IMG/VR virus record: IMGVR_UViG_2690316224_000018
From: a virus
Taxonomy: Duplodnaviria; Heunggongvirae; Uroviricota; Caudoviricetes
DNA: 10,481 nt
Direction: 5' to 3' (one strand)
Under the pieces are notes generated by a model that saw only the letters and a list, made by a program, of their open reading frames with translations, was not told the DNA's origin and did not search any database. The first letter of the stretch is position 1; every line of letters starts with the position of its first letter. Made by a program: the position numbers and the translations under genes. Of this stretch, positions 1 through 10,481 are shown one piece after another.

Positions 1-584
1 ATCATCCACCCAACTTAACTGAAACCGGGATGAAGTATATGCATATAAAGTTCACTTTGCCAAACTTCAGTATAAAAAACCACATAAAAAATAGGGTGTG
101 ATAAAAAATACCGTAACAATAAAGCAAAGGATTATAAATTCCGTTACAGTTACAAATGATACTCAAGAAACAATTCCTTAGGAAAAACTTATTTACAGCC
201 AATAAGTAAGACACTTATATGATATCAAGTTTTCATAAAACATAACTAGGCTAAATAGCTGCGCCTAATACCGCTACACTTTTGCCAGCCCATGTTTGCC
301 TCCGGGTATTGACCCCTTCTCTACGCAACTTCAGTTCCCACCACCAACTTTGCGGCAGCTTTGTAGGATCAATGTCTAAAAGAATAATGGTGACCGATAA
401 GAAAACGACTGAATAACTGCAAATTTTCGCTCAAAACCTTCCTGTCAGATCCATAGCGAATCAAGTGCTGAATGTCACAGTATCGAACAGAAAACAGTGA
501 CGATCTAACCCTTCAAGAATATTCTACGATTGTTCTGTTTAGGAAAAGCAAGGCGGGAAGTCGGGAGATAAGTCATTGATAAAG

Positions 585-646
585 TGGCGGAGAGAGGGGG
601 ATTTGAACCCCCGGTAGAGTTGCCCCTACTCCGGTTTTCGAGACCG
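585..646 (-). tRNA. Truncated tRNA-Ser (CGA-anticodon type) 3' segment, ~62 nt from anticodon stem to CCA; probable prophage att core (attR-type junction)
   Basis: Minus-strand reading 646->585 gives CGGTCTCGAAAACCGGAGTAGGGGCAACTCTACCGGGGGTTCAAATCCCCCTCTCTCCGCCA: anticodon loop CTCGAAA, a long variable arm typical of Ser tRNAs, T-arm GGGGG-TTCAAAT-CCCCC, acceptor 3' strand and CCA. The sequence 5' of it on the minus strand (647-675) has no GGAGAGA acceptor strand or D-arm, so the tRNA is incomplete. Assignment to an enterobacterial serU-like tRNA is from memory, not a search. Confidence 0.6.
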
Positions 647-723
647 ATGATACAGAGTCGAAAAATCAAAGAGTTAAAAATTTTTCTTGGAATAAATGTC
701 TTAAAATCGTACACGAAAAATCA

Positions 724-891
724 ATGAATTACATAACATTAAAGAAGAATATTCCAAGCCTTCTTGAGGCTACTACCTGTTTTCAGGTGTCATTCAGACG
801 TGATTTGCCCCAGATTGGGAAAGCACGCTTTTTTCTCAGCTATCGTCCTCTTATTTTGCCGTTACATTTCTTTTTGCACTCTAATGATTAA
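724..891 (+). CDS. Hypothetical small ORF (55 aa, MNYITLKKNIPSLLEATTCFQVSFRRDLPQIGKARFFLSYRPLILPLHFFLHSND); possibly a gene remnant
   Basis: Hand-translated ATG(724)..TAA(889-891); below the size cutoff of the supplied ORF track. No clear Shine-Dalgarno upstream (ACACGAAAAATCA-ATG). Sits in the AT-rich cargo region, opposite in orientation to the tail genes. Confidence 0.15.
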   Translation: MNYITLKKNIPSLLEATTCFQVSFRRDLPQIGKARFFLSYRPLILPLHFFLHSND

Positions 892-1138
892 TTTACAATA
901 ATAATATCGGTAATTATTGAGTAATAATAAATTGATTATTGCAAATGTAATTTAATTCCATCTTCGCGTTATATTCCAATCTTTAATCTCCGCATGGAAC
1001 AAGTTGCATGCGTGACTATATTAAGACAACTTATAACCACCAAAACATTTGCTTTGCAAACAAAAACAGTGACCATTGACTCTAAGAAAATTCCGATCTA
1101 TTGTTAGGGTCATCAAAGTTACTTAACAGTATTCCGAA

Positions 1139-1240
1139 ATGAAAATGCAAAGCAAGCTAATTGTCTTATTAAACATTATCATTGCATTTATATTATTTGA
1201 GCTTTTAGCTCAAAAATTTGGTTTGAGCACATTATTTTAA
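1139..1240 (+). CDS. Hypothetical small hydrophobic peptide (33 aa, MKMQSKLIVLLNIIIAFILFELLAQKFGLSTLF), probably one transmembrane helix
   Basis: Hand-translated ATG(1139)..TAA(1238-1240). Possible sigma70-like promoter upstream: TTGACT (1076-1081), 17-nt spacer, TATTGT (1099-1104). Strong plus-strand terminator ~150 bp downstream. Weak or absent Shine-Dalgarno; AT-rich context makes chance ORFs likely. Confidence 0.2.
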   Translation: MKMQSKLIVLLNIIIAFILFELLAQKFGLSTLF

Positions 1241-1389
1241 AGCAAGATAAACAATATCGGGCACTCTAGTTTTTATAATTAACAATTAAACGTCCATAAA
1301 ATGTTATTTACTTTTGTTCGCTATTGTCATATCTTAATATAGTGGCTTACGCCACTCTACTTTCATCATATTTTGTACGTTTATGTACT

Positions 1390-1419
1390 CGCCATGAAGC
1401 TCTTTCATGGCGATTTTTT
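1390..1419 (+). terminator. Rho-independent terminator, plus strand
   Basis: 9-bp perfect stem CGCCATGAA (1390-1398) / TTCATGGCG (1404-1412), 5-nt loop GCTCT, followed by A-TTTTTT (1413-1419). On the minus strand the stem is not followed by a T-run, so it is unidirectional (plus). Confidence 0.5.
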
Positions 1420-1505
1420 ATTCTTAATCCAAGAACATACTCCCTATCTATAGCAAAATCACTTTTTGAACAAAAGAATAACGTATTTAGGTAATCATTA
1501 CGAAT

Positions 1506-2087
1506 TTACCCTATAGGTGCTACTGGCCATTCAATATCCTGTGCAGTTGACGTATCAACACGGTTCAGCAATACCCGATACTTTTTCCATGCTTCCAGCA
1601 ACGAGATTTCTTCCTCCGTTGCGATCTCCAGATCTACAGCATCCTGAAGTGGCGCTATATGCTCACTGGCTACCTGCATCAGGCTGTTTTTTGTTTCTTC
1701 CGCCTCCCGGATCCGGAACAGTTTTTCTGCTTCCGTATCCTTCACCCAGGCTGTGCCGTTCCACTTCTGATATTCCCCTTCCGGCGATAACCAGGTGACA
1801 TTTTCCGGTAACGAGCCAAGTTCAGAAATAAATAACGCGTCGCCGGAAGCCACGTCATAGACGGTTTTTCCCCGATGATCTTCAACGAGATGCCACGATG
1901 CCTCATCACTGTTGAAAACAGCCACAAAGCCAGCCGGAATATCTGGCGGTGCAATATCGGTACTGTTTGCTGGCAGACCTGTATGAGGCGGAATATATGC
2001 GTCACCTTCACCAATAAATTCATTAGTTCCGGCCAGCAGATTATAAATTTTTATGGTCCGTGGTTGTTCACTCATTCTGAATGCCAT
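1506..2087 (-). CDS. tfa: Tail fiber assembly protein Tfa (193 aa), chaperone for the side tail fiber
   Basis: Translation begins [54 protein letters not shown]..., recognised as lambda Tfa / Rac TfaR family. Start ATG overlaps the stf stop as TAATG (shared A at 2087), implying translational coupling. Confidence 0.9.
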
Positions 2088-5000
2088 TATGCAAGCCTCA
2101 CAATATAGTTAAATGCGATGTTTTTGACGGTGTTTTCCGCGTTACCAGCAGCGTTAACGGTGATGGTGTGTCCATGTGAACCAATCGCAACGGAGTGCGT
2201 ATGAGCACCAATACCGACAGTATGCGCGTGTGCACCTGCAGATGCTGCTGTGCCGGACAGTGAGTGGCTATGATTACCATCTGTACTGGTATTAGCTAAC
2301 CACCCCGTAGACATACCTACTGAGCCTTGTACACCCCAGGTATTTTGACCTGAGCTTGTATAACCATATTGATAAGTATCTTTAAAAACACTGGGGTTAA
2401 ATCGACGGCCATCTCTATGGCTGTGATTACCAGCTGCATTCGTGCTGCCACTTAAACTATGGGTATGCGCACCAGTGTTATTCGTGGATTTAGTGCCGTA
2501 ATCAAACGACGATGTGGTTTTCGTCCCCAAATCCGTACTGGATGCGCTGGCGCTGTGGGTATGCGATTTAATGCCATCCTGTTCCTGAGACAATACGGCA
2601 CGACCACTGGCGGGCTTGCCCTTAATCGTCCAGCCACGCATATCAGGGATCACGCCTGACGGATAAGCGGCTGCAAGTTTCGGGTAAGCAGATTTGTCAA
2701 AAGTCTGCCCCTGCATCAGGGCATAACCAGACGGAACGGTATCTGATGGCCACGGGATTGGTGCACCGACTGGATAAAACTCTGCAGGAGGATGAGCCGA
2801 GGTGTAAAGCTGCGCCCACGGCGACCAGTTTGCGTCGGTCGTATCCCGTCGTGAACGAATAAATGCCGGAGCATGAGCACCACTTGTACCACTCCAGCCG
2901 ATGAGTAACTCACCTTCGCCAACGGCTGTCATCCCTTTCAGGTGAATGATATTTCCATACGCTGTTGGATATCCGTTGTTATACACCTCGTATAACTCAA
3001 GACCTGCTGCCCCCTGCGTATTGTCTGTCAGCGCGGCTACCCGACCTTTTGAAGCCAGATTAACTGATGATACTGCTGTTCCACCTGACGGTAGCGCCCC
3101 GATCTCTGATGCCGTTGGCTTATTTCTGGAGTTATAGTCCCTTCGCCAGCCAGGTGAATAATCTGTTCCGTGATTAATATAGGTAAACTGGGCGTTGGTT
3201 GTTCCGCCACCGCTGGATGTGGTCGGAGTGGTAATGCGGATCGTCATCGCTGACTTTATCCCCATTACTTCAATGACAGCTCCGGCGAGATGAATATTAC
3301 CGCAGCCAGTATCAGTAATGATTTTATTATTGCCATAAGACCAGGAACCCTTGCACATCCAGTATGGATGGTTAAATGCTCCCTGAGAATCCAGCCACTC
3401 GATAAACTGTGCAGTCGTCCAGTTTCCTGTTGTTGTGCTTACTGACCCACCGAAGGCACGGCAGGCACCAATATTTTTCGTAAAGGTGTCTTTGCCAGGG
3501 ATATCCGCACCGTTCTGATCTTTCTGCAGACGTTTCTCAGCATTGTCATTGGCTGCTTTTACTGCCTTTGGCGTTGCCGCCAGCGTTTCAGACGTGCTGT
3601 TGGTCGCGCTGCTTAGCTGGATTATCCCTTTCTGTGCTGTCGTTGCATCCTGTGCGGTGTATTTCCCGTTAGCCAGGTCATACGCGGCCTTAACGGCTTT
3701 TGGCGTTGCCGCCAGTGACTCGGAAGTGCTGTTGGTCGCACTGCTGAGCTGTACTATCCCCTTTTTCGTCGTGCTCGCATCCTCAAGCGCCACGGCGGAT
3801 GCAATATCCTCTGCCCGTTTTGCCGCTGTCTCAGCGCGCGTTGCCGCGGATTCCGCCGTACTTTTGCTCTGAGCTGCTGCCGTCGCACTGCCAGCTGCCT
3901 CTGTCGCCTTCGTGGATGCCGTCGTGGCGCTACCCTTCGCTGCTGACGCCTGTCTGGTCGCCTCATCTTTTGAAGCAGACGCAGATGATGCCGATGACGA
4001 CGCCGAACTGGCTGACGATGCGGCAGCCGTTTTTGAGGATTCTGCGCTGGTTTCCGACGCTTTCGCGTTCGTCTCGGATGTCTTCGCTGCGGAAGCAGAC
4101 CTCGCTGCTGCGCTGGCCTGTACAGCGGCTTCGCCAGCCTTCGTTGTGGCTGTTGAAGCGGACGATGCAGCACTTTCTGCCGATTTTCCGGCGGCGGTGG
4201 CACTGGCTGAGGCCTGCCCGGCACTTGTTGACGCGGCACTGGCAGACGACGCAGCCGCTGTTTTTGAGCCTGCCGCAGCTGAGGCACTCTGTCCCGCTGC
4301 CGTTTCAGAAGCCTTGGCGTTCGTCTCGGACGTTTTTGCCGCCTTCGCAGAATTTGCTGTCGCCGTTGCCGAGGAAGCTGCGCTGCTGGCGCTCGAGGCT
4401 GCGCTCGTTTCTGATGATTTTGCCGCCTCTTTTGAAGCCGACGCATCCCGGGCTGAGGTGGCAGCTTCTGACGCTTTCGTGGTCGCGGTGGATGCTGAAG
4501 TGGCTGCTGATTGTTGTGACGCTGCCGCATTCGTTTCTGACGTTTTTGCCGCAGCGGCACTGGTGGCCGCCGCGCTTTTTGAGGACTCTGCAGCGGCAGC
4601 ACTTTTTGATGCTTCAGTGGCCTTTGCTGATGCCGTTCCTGCGCTGGAAGACGCTGACTGAGCCGACGAAGCGGCCTGTCCGGCTGACGTGCTGGCTGCG
4701 CGTGCTGAGCCTGCAGCATCAGTCGCATGGGTTGCCGCCTCACGGGCAGATGTGCCGGCATCGCCGGCTGACTTCTTCGCGGCTGCCGTGTTCTGTGCCA
4801 CTGCGGACGCGTTACGCGCCACCTCTTCCACCATCAGTTCAAAACGGCGCAGTGCCTCTGGCCGGACATCATCCTCCGTCATTGCACCGAGGAAATCATT
4901 CAGTGTGCCCGGCTTTGAGTCCTCATATACGGTGATAATCCCGGCGTGTGACGGCGGGAATCCCTCCACCAACAGACTGACGCTGTACTGACCATACTCG

Positions 5001-5158
5001 ACGTCCATTGTGTAACGCCCGGCTTCATCCGGGTTTTCTGAGGCCACTGTGTTCACCACCACCGTGGTGCTGTTGCGCCTGGCCTTTAGCTGAATGGTGC
5101 AGTTTTGTATCGGCTTACCTGCGCCATCTTTCAGTACACCTGAAATCCGTACTGCCAT
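2087..5158 (-). CDS. stf: Side tail fiber protein Stf (1023 aa), mosaic: lambda/Rac-like N-terminus, long Ala/Ser/Thr-rich repeat shaft, divergent central domain, conserved HxH-repeat C-terminus
   Basis: N-terminus [37 protein letters not shown]...[19 protein letters not shown] matches lambda Stf/StfR. Shaft (aa ~115-455) is repeats of [14 protein letters not shown] type. Conserved GI(V/I)[21 protein letters not shown] motif present twice. C-terminus [39 protein letters not shown]...GAHTHS...GNHSHS...[27 protein letters not shown]...[13 protein letters not shown]-like GGGGGG 3 nt upstream of ATG at 5158. Confidence 0.9.
3557..3763 (-). repeat. Internal tandem duplication (period ~132 nt, 44 codons) of the conserved fiber motif inside stf
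   Basis: Protein copies [27 protein letters not shown] (aa 466-492) and [27 protein letters not shown] (aa 510-536); matching DNA segments visible at ~3689-3763 and ~3557-3631. Confidence 0.6.
3796..4816 (-). repeat. Low-complexity Ala/Ser/Thr-rich coding repeat region of the Stf shaft
   Basis: About 340 codons dominated by GCN/TCN/ACN with recurring [13 protein letters not shown]-type units; it is stop-free in several frames, which produces the long overlapping phantom ORFs in the track. Confidence 0.6.
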
Positions 5159-5222: not shown

Positions 5223-5822
5223 TCAGAATTTATAACCGACACCAACGATGAAACTGTTGGTACGCCAGTCACCGCTGCCGGAGCCTTCATAAGCGACGTC
5301 AACGGCCACGGATTCGGTCGGGTTAAACTGCACGCCAGCTCCCCACGCCAGAGACGTGTTGCTGTGGCGACCGTCATCACTTCCGGTCAGCACATCGTGC
5401 GTTTTCCCCTTGTTGTCAGTTACGCGGATATAATCCCCGGAGAAAGTCGACACACGGCTGTAAGCCATACCCGCCATCGCATACGCGCTGAACCATTCAT
5501 TCACGCGCACAGACGGCCCCGCCATCACGCTGAACCAGCGATTACGCACGGAATCCTCATGCCAGCGGGTATCGCTGTAATGCGTTTTTTGCTCATCTTC
5601 AGCGTTGGCATAACTGAATGACGTAATCAGCCCCAGCGTGTCCGTAAACTCATAACGGTATTTCACGTTAATCCCGTTCAGATTTTCGCTGCCGGGAGCG
5701 TTCGTACGGGCATGAAGATACCCTGCGCTCAGTGTGGCCTGCTGCTCAGACGCCCATGCAGGCGCACCGGATACGGCCAGACAGATGGCTGCGGACAAAA
5801 TGGCTGCACAAACTTTACGCAT
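5223..5822 (-). CDS. lom: Lom outer-membrane protein (Ail/Lom/PagC family 8-strand beta-barrel), 199 aa with signal peptide
   Basis: MRKVCAAILSAAICLAVSGAPAWASE...LSAGYLHARTNAPGS...NLNGINVKYRYEFTDTLG...SDTRWHEDSVRNRWFSVMAGPSVRVNEWFSAYAMAG...VGVGYKF matches lambda Lom closely; terminal F is typical of outer-membrane barrels. SD GAGAGG 5 nt upstream of ATG (5822). Confidence 0.9.
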   Translation of the reverse strand: MRKVCAAILSAAICLAVSGAPAWASEQQATLSAGYLHARTNAPGSENLNGINVKYRYEFTDTLGLITSFSYANAEDEQKTHYSDTRWHEDSVRNRWFSVMAGPSVRVNEWFSAYAMAGMAYSRVSTFSGDYIRVTDNKGKTHDVLTGSDDGRHSNTSLAWGAGVQFNPTESVAVDVAYEGSGSGDWRTNSFIVGVGYKF

Positions 5823-5889: not shown

Positions 5890-8800
5890 TCAGCTGATAC
5901 TGATGCCTGCGGTGGCTTTCTTCATCACCACAACCAGCAAATCGCTGATACTTGCTGTGGGATACCAGTCATTTACCAGCCATGATGACACCGAAAACTC
6001 CAGCGTCATGTGGCCGCGACCAGCTGGCATATCAATAACACCACTGTAAATCAGCGTATTATCCAGCGCGGTACGGTTATAAATTTCAGCACCGTTTTTC
6101 CGTACTATCAGGCGGCATGACGAATAAATATCGTTATTCTCCCGCTCATGTTTAGCGCCGCTGAATGCCACCGCCGGAATAACAATCTGCCGGTCAAACG
6201 GCTGATCGTCATAAACCCTGACGGTGATGGTCCCTGATGGCCACCGTTCCGGTGCACGGGAGTCCCGGGGGAAAGCTTTGCCCACTGTTTTAACGAGATC
6301 GCCTTCAATCTGGTTGGCGGACAATTTTCCCAGAACCCGACAGTTCTCGTTAATCGTGACGTTGTTGAGCGCCCCGGAGTTCGCATTCACGTTACCGCTG
6401 ATATCGGCATTTTTCGCCGTCAGCCGCCCGTCCGGTGTCAGGGAAAATGCCGGAGGATTACCGCCACTGGTAATGGTCGGAGCCGTCAGGCGTTTCAGGA
6501 ACACGTCGTTCATGAATATCTGATCGCCCTGACCAACAAACATCGGCTTTGTGTTGCCATTCGCAGGATTAATCATCGCAATCCGGTCAGCAGCCAGAAG
6601 CACCTGACTCTGCATACCTGCTGGCGTATTCTCAATACCGGCTCCGATACCCGCAATATAAAGGCGTCCGTCCTTCATCTGCTGCAGTTTCACGGCCCAC
6701 ATGCTGTTCAGGTTATTATTTGTATCAACCTGAACTTTCTGTATCTGCTGGATTGCCGCACTCTGGTCTTCCAGTTTTTTATTGACGGTCTGCGTGATTT
6801 CATTGCTGACATTCGTAATGGACGTCCTGATTTCAGCCAGGTCCGGCGCAAGCTGACCGTTATCAATCTGCGTCCACAGCTCCTGGGCCAGATGTGTTTT
6901 CCCGATTTCTCCTTTGAAAAAATCCAGGTAACCTTCCGCATCATCGCTCGCCCGACCGACAGCCTCCACAAATGCCGATTTGCCAACGGTGTTCACACTG
7001 CGGATATAAAAGTAATAATCATGGCCCGGTTTGATATTGATACTGGCGGCTATCCAGTACAGCCCCGTGCCAAGGTAGCGGGCTGTGGTTTCAACCTGCC
7101 TGATATCGGTAATCCGCGTTTCCGAAAACCAGAACTCAAACTGTACCGTCGGGTCATACACCGCAAGACGCGGGACCGCTGTTATCTGAAAATAGCCCGG
7201 TGTCAGCTCAATCTGTGACGGCGCTGCCGGTGCGGCAATCCGGAACGATACCGACGCCGGATCGCCCTGCTGTCCCCGGGCATTTACCGCCCGGACTGTC
7301 AGCGTGTAACGCCCCAGCGCCAGTTGTGTGAAGCGGTATGTGGTTTCTGCCGTCCGGGCTGTGCTGACCAGCCGCTCACTGCCGTCATCCGCTGCCACGG
7401 TCAGGCGAAGCATGAAACTCACGCCCTTCACCACCTTCGGCGTGTCCCATCGCGCCAGCACCTGATATTCCCCGCTGTCTGCGGTGACTTCGGCAGTCAG
7501 GTGCTGCACTGCTGGCGGCGTGACACCATTCACCGTGCCGCTCTGGTCGCCGTCAAAGTGCGCCCCGTTATCCACGATGGCTTCTTTTTCCGGTACATGC
7601 TGCACGGCGGTGATGGCATACGTGCCGTCGTCGTTCTCACGGATACTCACGCAGCGGAACAGGCGCTGGCGCAGCGTCGGCAGCTTCAGCCCCCACACGC
7701 TGTATCCGGCAACGCCGTCAGGAACACGGCTCACTTTTACCTTCACGCCGTCGGTGACGGACTGGACCTCCACGCTGACCGGATTGCCACTTCCGTCAAC
7801 CAGGCTTATCAGCGTGGTACCGGAGGATGGCAGCGTGATTTCACGGTCGAGCGTCAGCGTCCGGGTCTGGCTGTTTACCGCCAGCACGCGCCCGCCGATG
7901 CTGATACCGGCATAGTCATCATCACAGATTTCAATGACATCGCCCGGCACATGGCGAAGCCCTTCTGCGCCCACGCTGAAGTCCACGGTCTGCGTTTCCA
8001 GCAGTTCTGTTTTAATCAGCCACAGCCCGGCGCGGTGTGCCTGCCCCCGGCTGGTACAGCCAAAAGCATCCATCTTCGTGACGTTACGACCGTAACGGGC
8101 AATGGCCTGCGTATCCTCCACAAGCTCTGTCGCCGTCTCCCAGCCGTTGTTCGGGTCAGTCCAGTTCACCTCAACGGCATTATGGCGGTCTTTCAGGGCG
8201 CTAAAGCTGTAGCGGAACGGCGCGCCATCATCCGGCATCACCACATTACTGCGGTTATAGGTCCACACCTTATCCGACGGTCGGTCCTGCACGAACGTCA
8301 GCGTCTGCCCGTTCCATACCGGCATACAGCGCATCGCCGAGCAGAAATCACTGAGCACATCCCATGCCTTGCGCTGTGTGGTCAGCCAGGCATTACAGGT
8401 GATGCGCGGCTCCGTGCCACCAAAGCCATCCGGCACCGACTGGTCGCAACTCTGGCCGATGACATACAGCGCCCATTTGTCCACATCCGCCGCACCAAGA
8501 CGTTTCCCCATGCCATAGCGCGGGTGGGTCAGCATATCCCACAGACACCAGGCCATGTTGTTGCTGTATGCTGGCTTAAACGTTCCGTCCCAGATACCGC
8601 TGTATTGCCGCGTCTGCGGGTTATAGTTCGACGGCACCTGCAGAATGCGCCCGCGAAGATGATAATTACGGCTCACCTGCTGGCTGCCGAACTGTTCCGA
8701 GTCCACCTGCACACCGACCAGTGCCGTGTTCGGGTAGCACTGTTTCACATCGATGATTTCGGTGTATGACGACCAGAGCGTTTTGTTCTGCAGCTGGTCT

Positions 8801-9369
8801 GTGGTGCTGTCCGGCGTCATCCTGCGCATCCGGATATTAAACGGGCGCGGCGGCAGGTTATCCACCACCACCGAGGCCAGATACTGCGAGGTGGTTTTGC
8901 CCTTAATGGTGATGTCTTTTTCCGTCACCCAGCCACCGTTACGCTGTATCTGAACCAGCAGGCGGACTTCCGATGGATTCCTGTCCCCCTTTGAGGTGGT
9001 TTCCACCAGTGCCTGCACACCGAAGGTAAAGCGCAGACGGTCGATGTTTGCCGACGTGATGGTGCGGGTGATCGGCGTGTCATATTTCACTTCCGTACCC
9101 AGCACCGTCTCGGAGCCGGAGGATTCAAATCCCTCCGGCGGTGTCTGCTCCTGCTCACCTGCCCGGAACACCACCGTGACGCCGGAGATGTTGGTATTCC
9201 CCTCAGTGTCCAGCACTGGCGTACTGTTCAGCAGCACGCTTTTTAATCCATCCACCGGACCTTCAATCGGCCCTTCGCTGATGGCATCGATCACACTCAG
9301 CAACTGCGTGGACTTCAGGTTGTCCTTCGCTTCGCGCGGAGTATGCCCCTTACTGCTGCCTTTACCCAT
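5890..9369 (-). CDS. J: Tail tip host-specificity protein J (central tail fiber), ~1159 aa
   Basis: From the ATG at 9369 the product starts [63 protein letters not shown]..., matching the lambda J N-terminus as recalled. The track's longer ORF (to 9414) begins at an upstream in-frame GTG and adds 15 residues not expected. SD AGGA lies directly upstream of the ATG. Fibronectin-like middle region is conserved; C-terminal region is divergent. Confidence 0.9.
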
Positions 9370-9392
9370 TCCTAACGCTCCATAAACGACAA

Positions 9393-9410
9393 AACCGCCC
9401 GGAGGCGGTT
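9393..9410 (-). other. Inverted repeat (possible weak terminator or RNA stability/attenuation hairpin) in the I-J intergenic spacer
   Basis: AACCGCC(9393-9399) / CGGA loop / GGCGGTT(9404-9410); on the minus strand it is followed by TTTTGTCGTTTAT and then the J ribosome-binding site. Confidence 0.25.
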
Positions 9411-9429
9411 TCACATAAAACGTTTTTCA

Positions 9430-10101
9430 TCAGCGACCAATCACTACAACCTGACCACCATCCCCTTCGTCTGCCGTGCTGATCTCCTGAGAGACCACCC
9501 GCGACCCCACGCGCATTTCACCGTACAGAACGGGCAGAACATTGCCCTGGGCAACCATGTTATCCAGTGAGGAGAAATAGGTGTTCTGCTTACCGTTATC
9601 CGTTGTCTGTGTACGGGGAGTTCTGGCTTTCGGTGCCAGCATCTGCGCCACACCACCGAGCACCATACTGGCACCGAGAGAAAACAGGATGCCGGTCATA
9701 CCACCGGCCCCAATGGCTGCCCCCCATGCTGCAAGGGTGGCTCCGGCGGTAAAGAATGATCCGGCAATGGCGGCAGCCCCCAGGACAATCTGGAATACGC
9801 CACCTGACTTGGCCCCGGCGACTCTGGGAACAATATGAATCACAGCGCCATCAGGCAGAGTCTCATGTAACTGCGCCGTTAACCCGGACGTGCTGACGTC
9901 CCGCCCGGCAATCCGTACCTGATACCAGCCGTCGCTCAGTTTCTGACGAAACGCCGGGAGCTGTGTGGCCAGTGCCCGGATGGCTTCAGCCCCCGTTTTC
10001 ACACGAAGGTCGATGCGGCGACCAAATCGTTGTAAATCCCCGTAAAGGCAGATGCGCGCCATGCCCGGTGACGCCAGAGGGAGTGTGTGCGTCGCTGCCA
10101 T
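9430..10101 (-). CDS. I: Tail tip assembly protein I (223 aa)
   Basis: MAATHTLPLASPGMARICLYGDLQRFGRRIDLRVKTGAEAIRALATQLPAFRQKLSDGWYQVRIAGRDV...VVSQEISTADEGDGGQVVVIGR is essentially lambda gpI as recalled (ubiquitin-like N-domain, Gly/Ala-rich hydrophobic stretch). Its start overlaps the 3' end of K by ~100 nt, as in lambda. Confidence 0.9.
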   Translation of the reverse strand: MAATHTLPLASPGMARICLYGDLQRFGRRIDLRVKTGAEAIRALATQLPAFRQKLSDGWYQVRIAGRDVSTSGLTAQLHETLPDGAVIHIVPRVAGAKSGGVFQIVLGAAAIAGSFFTAGATLAAWGAAIGAGGMTGILFSLGASMVLGGVAQMLAPKARTPRTQTTDNGKQNTYFSSLDNMVAQGNVLPVLYGEMRVGSRVVSQEISTADEGDGGQVVVIGR

Positions 10102-10481
10102 TTGTCGGTGTACCTCTCTCGTTTGCTCAGTTGTTCAGGAATATGGTGCAGCAGCTCGCCGTCGCCGCAGTAAATTGCGGCGTGATTCGGCACCGATGAA
10201 CCAAAACAGCACAGCAGCACATCGCCCGGCTGTGCCGCTGACAACGGCACCTGATACAGCCCCGTCGCCTCCAGATTATCCAGATAGAGATTCTGGCCGT
10301 TACGCCACCAGTCATCCTCACGATGAAAGTCCGGCATCTCAATCCCCGCCAGATGATAAGCATCCCGGAACAGTGTGTAACAGTCCGTCACACCGTGCTC
10401 AAAGCGCCGCCCGGTGAGATGCGGCACACAGCGGAACTTATGAATCGTCCCCCGGCAGACCAGCCACCACGGCAAATCACT
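9999..10481 (-). CDS. K: Tail tip assembly protein K (NlpC/P60-type C-terminal domain), 5' end truncated by the window edge
   Basis: The reading frame is open to the window end; the listed ORF begins at an internal Met (10475). Conserved TDCYTLFRDAYHLAGIEMPDF (Cys) and NHAAIYCGDGELLHHIPEQLSKRERYTDKWQRRTHSLWRHRAW (His) segments match lambda gpK; lambda K is ~199 aa, so the true start lies beyond 10481. Confidence 0.85.
   Translation of the reverse strand, partial: SDLPWWLVCRGTIHKFRCVPHLTGRRFEHGVTDCYTLFRDAYHLAGIEMPDFHREDDWWRNGQNLYLDNLEATGLYQVPLSAAQPGDVLLCCFGSSVPNHAAIYCGDGELLHHIPEQLSKRERYTDKWQRRTHSLWRHRAWRASAFTGIYNDLVAASTFV

Follow-up and report, generated by a model that had tools for sequence, protein, structure and literature searches.

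Gene content of the window

The window, by which we mean the whole stretch of 10,481 nt analysed here, carries distal tail genes from a lambda-like prophage, every one of them encoded on the minus strand (Table 1). ORFs, Pfam domains, and colinear blastn matches to lambda 14393-22535 place these genes in the order K-I-J-lom-stf-tfa, which is expected for a lambda-family gpJ; K is truncated by the window end. The J reading frame begins at a lambda-like ATG at position 9369 and runs through 1159 uninterrupted codons to a stop codon at 5890-5892 (ORF and translation). Six gpJ Pfam domains were found in the protein (FNIII-A_GpJ, Phage-tail_3, Ig_J, Ig_J_second, Phage_Tail_Tip, and Ig_GpJ_C), each above its curated cut-off with E-values of 1e-30 to 1e-43, and overall identity to lambda J is 83% (BLASTP). 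With its full domain architecture, the gene order, and an intact ORF within the range of ~1130-1160 aa, J is a lambda-family tail tip protein.

Table 1. Features of the window and segments of the J protein.
Feature	Coordinates	Strand	Evidence and remarks
Tail fibre assembly gene tfa	1506..2087	minus	Pfam Caudo_TAP; 93.7% nt identity to lambda 21824-22535
Side tail fibre gene stf	2087..5158	minus	Single intact ORF, 1023 aa; Pfam phage_tail_N, Phage_fiber_2, Collar
lom-like outer-membrane protein gene	5223..5822	minus	Directly downstream of J; Pfam Ail_Lom, E = 5.7e-125
J, tail tip / central tail fibre protein	5890..9369	minus	Intact ORF, 1159 aa + stop
J residues 1010-1159, receptor-binding domain, VT1-Sakai/gpJ-1A2 class	5893..6342	minus	Domain assigned by position; Pfam Ig_GpJ_C, residues 1029-1159, E = 1.2e-38
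D1134, aligned with lambda D1107	5968..5970	minus	N in 1A2, WGPS2, and 204576; G in PhiR40_1
Receptor-domain residues 1076-1079, variable loop	6133..6144	minus	R-E-N-N, K-E-H-T in 1A2; at the lambda 1048-1049 indel/variation hot spot (alignment)
J residues 901-1009, central straight fibre (Pfam Phage_Tail_Tip)	6343..6669	minus	PF09327 over residues 872-1000
J residues 820-900, variant alpha-helical shaft (AHS) region	6670..6912	minus	AHS assignment by position only
J residues 1-819, lambda-type hub domains and two FNIII/Ig domains	6913..9369	minus	97% aa identity to lambda J
Tail assembly gene I, lambda-type	9430..10101	minus	ORF; upstream of J; within block 95.9% nt identical to lambda

The genes downstream of J are related to those of lambda to different degrees. 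In laboratory lambda, stf is split into orf-401 and orf-314, whereas the window has one uninterrupted frame. Its N-terminal 326 aa are 82% identical to orf-401; its distal ~230 aa match orf-314 at 71% identity and include a divergent section (residues ~905-964). The lom-like product is 43% identical to lambda Lom, and a lom-like gene also follows J in the Stx phage records that we fetched, in phage 434, and in PhiR40_1; lom has been replaced, either together with the J C-terminus or independently of it. Downstream of tfa, no long ORF was found in window positions 1-1505; in E. coli STEC313, the closest complete genome (95% identity), the corresponding DNA bears no annotation. The related prophage of STEC313 adjoins a gene for an AraC-family regulator, IS remnants, and ybhB-bioA, the surroundings of the lambda attachment site.

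Divergence of J from lambda J is confined to distal segments

We compared J with lambda J (from NC_001416) segment by segment, using BLASTP and MAFFT. Over residues 1-819, 793 of the 819 positions are identical (97%), in agreement with the preliminary description, which had the first ~815 residues following lambda J closely. Identity then falls to 26% over residues 820-900 (21/81), where the window carries 28 extra residues; a divergent internal patch had been proposed at residues ~821-890 (nt ~6700-6907), and it is real and rightly located. Residues 901-989 are 76% and residues 990-1009 are 80% identical to lambda J, followed by a second drop to 44% over residues 1010-1159 (66/151), which bears out the divergence described for the last ~150 residues. 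Over the last 250 residues, identity is 57%, far from the value above 90% that had been named as speaking against a diverged receptor-binding region. The interval 5893-6342 given for that region is in frame and encodes residues 1010-1159, but the protein sequence quoted with it begins one residue after C1010.

The same pattern is seen in the nucleotide sequence. Window positions 6873-10481 are 95.9% identical to lambda and positions 6340-6703 are 75.8% identical, and blastn of positions 5893-6339 against lambda returned no match. A switch from 97% to 26-44% amino acid identity inside one intact ORF indicates a mosaic junction rather than noise.

Lambda J (PDB: 8iyk, 8xcj, 8xck), the archetype of LamB-binding tail tips, has the same gene position and domain architecture as the J of the window, and its shaft is 28 aa shorter. 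Its distal part consists of two FNIII domains, an AHS at ~809-861 that refolds upon receptor binding, a beta-prism fibre, and an Ig-like domain for receptor binding, which inserts four bottom loops into LamB (PMC11101478). By position in this architecture, we assign residues 820-900 to the AHS and the last 150 residues to the receptor-binding domain. The specificity region of lambda J spans residues 960-1132, and both natural variation and laboratory receptor switching concentrate at four loops within it, at ~1012, 1048-49, 1077-78, and 1107; of these positions, 1012 and 1107 are indispensable when OmpF use is gained (PMC6646904). The J of the window has a one-residue indel relative to lambda at 1106/1107 and substitutions throughout the 1008-1014 and 1042-1052 loops. 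It does not combine high identity to lambda residues 960-1132 with lambda's loops at 1012, 1048, 1077, and 1107, as a lambda-type LamB-binding domain would.

At least three module types are combined in J

Alignment with the J proteins of seven other phages (eight J classes in all) revealed different closest relatives for each segment. Residues 1-819 are 97-98% identical to lambda, phage 434 (98%), and Lambda_2E9 (97%), and only 74-77% identical to the J proteins of Stx phages. Residues 820-900 match Stx2 phage 1717 (99%), phage 204576 (98%), and Lambda_2E9 (96%), and residues 901-989 are 91-97% identical to the same three. The receptor-binding domain (residues 1010-1159) is 99% identical to that of phage 204576, 96% to Stx2a_WGPS2, and 89% to PhiR40_1, and only 63-65% to 1717 and Lambda_2E9 (65% for the latter) and 41% to 434. 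J thus joins a lambda-type body to a shaft of the 1717/2E9 type and a receptor domain of the Sakai type, at least three module types in a single mosaic protein. All eight aligned J classes have the motif NADISG, without change, shortly ahead of the receptor domain, and the conserved segment that contains it is a plausible crossover site.

In the assembled tail tip, residues 1-819 would build the lambda-type hub and FNIII domains, and residues 820-1009 would form the shaft and fibre, like those of 1717, Lambda_2E9, and 204576. The last ~167 residues would fold as an Ig-like domain for receptor binding, and they belong to the VT1-Sakai / gpJ-1A2 class. The AHS region varies in length among phages: that of the window is 28 aa longer than those of lambda and 434, and that of PhiR40_1 is longer again by ~73 aa. 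A heptad-register check of the longer shaft found 5-6 of 8 a/d positions hydrophobic, only a moderate periodicity.

The receptor module is nearly identical to that of VT1-Sakai and gpJ-1A2

A search with tblastn showed that the last 170 aa of J are 95.3% identical to the J in the records of the Stx1 phage VT1-Sakai and of the PPompW prophages of E. coli O157. These share the junction NADISG/NVNANSG with the window, and a lom-like gene and stf lie downstream in both. The J body is different: in the O157 Stx-phage J that we compared (Stx2a_WGPS2) it is only 74% identical over residues 1-819, whereas that of the window is lambda-type.

The same junction occurs in an engineered protein with a determined receptor. 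In A8 and 1A2, the C-terminus of lambda J was exchanged for that of a natural E. coli phage J variant. The two engineered proteins were obtained by selection for function in cells lacking lamB, and the receptor of each is OmpC (PMC11338833 and preprint). The gpJ-1A2 DNA given in the supplement of PMC11338833 keeps the lambda sequence as far as ...NADISG; its recoded part begins with NVNANSG and extends to the stop. As the available text of this DNA contains OCR insertions and deletions, it was aligned to the window protein by a frameshift-tolerant dynamic programme. Across 167 positions, 146 are identical, 8 are unreadable from OCR damage, and 8 are credible differences; five more apparent changes adjoin OCR damage (one is a stop codon) and were not counted as credible. 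With residues of the window inserted at the damaged positions, the sequence was then compared with a phage collection. The reconstructed module is 100% identical to the natural J of VT1-Sakai, of the PPompW prophages, and of vB_EcoS-783R2, a match that confirms the reconstruction and shows which natural type served as donor.

The window and the VT1-Sakai / 1A2 module are therefore nearly identical over the last 167 residues, with 159 in common (95%) and no indels. From window to 1A2, the eight substitutions are A1000T, R1076K, N1078H, N1079T, R1118H, S1129A, D1134N, and S1157T. Three of the window residues (A1000, S1129, and D1134) are absent from the other four class members examined.

The two engineered proteins differ in the OmpC variants that they accept: 1A2 accepts EDL933-type and most other OmpC variants, though not K-12 OmpC, whereas A8 accepts both K-12 and EDL933 OmpC (PMC11338833 and preprint). 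The recipients of the OmpC panel had lamB and ompC deleted and were complemented with ompC variants (PMC11338833). Particles with 1A2 delivered to ~98% of MG1655 cells with EDL933 OmpC (PMC11338833, Brödel et al., Nature 2024), and in wild-type MG1655, which is LamB+, they reached only ~5% of cells, compared with 98% for wild-type lambda (PMC11338833). By experiment, the transplanted module is thus enough to redirect lambda from LamB to OmpC, which gives the class of the window domain direct evidence of OmpC use. In one source-data sheet of that paper, the numbers for panel C (OmpC-EDL933) equal those for panel B (OmpC-MG1655), which contradicts Fig. 1b, and ED Fig. 8a gives ~98%; the identical numbers are probably a copy error in the sheet or in the text extraction. 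The delivery figures used here rest on the two other datasets (Fig. 1b and 8a) and the text of the paper, not on the discordant sheet.

Related receptor domains and their receptors

Among solved structures, 9wca, 'A8 gpJ 713', matches the C-terminal 250 aa best (E = 1.8e-105), followed by lambda J (8xcj, 8iyk; 3e-85), and the A8 gpJ and lambda J structures align over the whole of this region. A8 gpJ (PDB: 9wca, 9wcb), phi330, Lambda_2E9, and 1717 belong to the same fold family, with receptor domains 63-67% identical to that of the window; the C-terminal part of phi330 J, virtually the same sequence as that of A8, has 67% identity to the window across 185 aa. Compared with the window, loop 1 of this class lacks 4 residues and loop 2 has 5 more, so that the window domain does not show the close identity and equal loop lengths of a class member. 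Judged by these comparisons, A8/phi330 is a sister class of the window receptor domain. The shaft and fibre (820-989) of Lambda_2E9 and 1717 are 91-99% identical to those of the window.

The Stx2a siphophage phi330 does not plate on an ompC deletion mutant, plating is restored by ompC in trans, and the phage accepts K-12 OmpC (PMC12502783). Phage 434 is also described as OmpC-targeting (PMC12502783). Its J combines a lambda-type body (98% over 1-819) with an Ig-like C-terminal domain, which has longer loops than the receptor domain of the window; the shaft is lambda-type and not the long variant. OmpC use by both phi330 and 434 argues that this porin is widespread as a receptor among non-lambda J receptor domains.

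Several other candidates and sources were set aside. The J of Gifsy-1, an OmpC-using phage of Salmonella, has an unrelated C-terminus (18% identity to lambda), and no Gifsy phage is among the listed tblastn matches. Phage 21 is not natively an OmpC phage, as its native receptor is LamB. A 2026 receptor-prediction preprint treats the GpJ of Drexlerviridae, not lambdoid receptor domains, and reference 47 of the phi330 paper, cited for OmpC use by long-tailed Stx phages, concerns the virulent phage PP01 and is not relevant here. Lambda's own C-terminus was likewise rejected as the identity of the J C-terminus, since the BLASTP identity is 44% and the sequence is of the O157/Sakai type instead. 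In the literature on natural carriers of the exact module (PhiR phages on ECOR13/E. coli C, vB_EcoS-640R1, and JLK-2012), we found no usable receptor data.

OmpC is the most likely receptor

The preliminary description had proposed that the receptor is probably not the LamB used by lambda. Homology supports this, as the C-terminal module differs from that of VT1-Sakai/gpJ-1A2 at only eight positions, and close homology at this level (95%) connects it to a module that is active in a lamB-deleted host with EDL933-type OmpC and performs poorly on wild-type K-12. We consider it very probable, from this sequence relationship, that the J receptor module binds the porin OmpC rather than LamB. The lambda (LamB) and 434 (OmpC) classes are about equally distant from the window domain, which means that distant homology alone does not predict the receptor, and the argument for OmpC therefore rests on the 95% match to 1A2. 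By analogy with lambda, the bottom loops of the trimeric receptor domain would enter the trimeric porin, and the signal of binding would travel up the fibre and open the tail. For the window allele with its eight substitutions, both the choice of OmpC over LamB and the set of OmpC variants accepted are predictions.

The substitutions themselves bear on which OmpC alleles would be accepted. Indels between the aligned J classes fall at exactly the four hot-spot loops of lambda. Four of the eight differences between the window and 1A2 lie in such loops, three in the second loop (1076, 1078, and 1079) and one at D1134, the equivalent of lambda D1107, although the loop alignment is approximate at 44% identity. 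Since these are specificity loops and hot spots of natural variation, the range of OmpC alleles may differ from that of 1A2. It is a tentative but tangible possibility that OmpC is still bound and that the eight substitutions shift the accepted alleles, for example by gaining K-12-type OmpC or losing EDL933-type OmpC. The different OmpC ranges of 1A2 and A8 are consistent with such a shift, as are the three residues particular to the window allele (A1000, S1129, and D1134). Nothing speaks directly against it, and it refines the OmpC assignment rather than contradicting it; the conservation of the exact allele at 100% DNA identity in strains from many sources is uninformative on allele range. 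In a broader form, in which the eight substitutions could give either a different OmpC allele range, such as K-12-type OmpC, or partial use of a second porin, the proposal is speculative and somewhat unlikely. Were either to hold, the window allele would be a natural counterpart of the stepwise change of receptor loops known from evolution experiments with lambda.

Binding of a different outer-membrane protein instead of OmpC, be it OmpF, PhoE, or another porin-like trimer, is improbable. Few changes can suffice for a new receptor, in that one to four J substitutions can add OmpF use in lambda (PMC6646904) and OmpC and then OmpF use in phage 21, but these laboratory gains are additions made under strong selection that destabilise J. 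Moreover, the module is 95% identical to one of demonstrated OmpC dependence, and the 65%-identical A8/phi330 class likewise uses OmpC. Continued use of LamB is the least credible reading and is highly improbable: the domain shares its fold family with that of lambda (Pfam Ig_GpJ_C and the PDB matches to lambda J) and the lambdoid phage 21 is natively LamB-using, but only 44% of the last 150 aa are shared with lambda, the critical loops differ by an indel and by substitutions, and the 1A2 module is active in lamB-deleted cells and poor on LamB+ wild-type K-12, where lambda J delivers well.

OmpC as the receptor of the J module also bears on the side fibres. Ur-lambda Stf is reported to bind OmpC, and by analogy the side fibres and the tail tip of this phage may both address the same porin.

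The window-type receptor domain is the norm among E. coli prophages

The preliminary description treated the receptor module as an unusual variant, a view that does not hold in complete E. coli genomes, where it is the commonest J receptor module and that of lambda is rare. DNA of the window receptor domain (450 nt) is found in 3380 of the 5426 genomes, with a median of two copies per genome, and is at least 95% identical in 1913 records. Receptor-domain DNA that is 100% identical occurs in strains from dog, cattle, pig, fish, and human. The lambda J receptor-domain DNA is found in 98 of the 5426 genomes, always with at least 99% identity, and the carriers at the top of the list, which we inspected, are laboratory K-12, B, and DE3 strains. 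The window-type domain is thus the norm among E. coli prophages, and the LamB-binding domain of lambda is the exception.

The J module is already known and widespread, is annotated as gpJ in thousands of genomes, and is part of a typical lambdoid mosaic. A copy with 95% identity has a known receptor and is already in engineered delivery particles, and on this basis the receptor of the prophage is predictable as OmpC. Annotators should not presume LamB as the receptor of proteins described as 'lambda-like J'.
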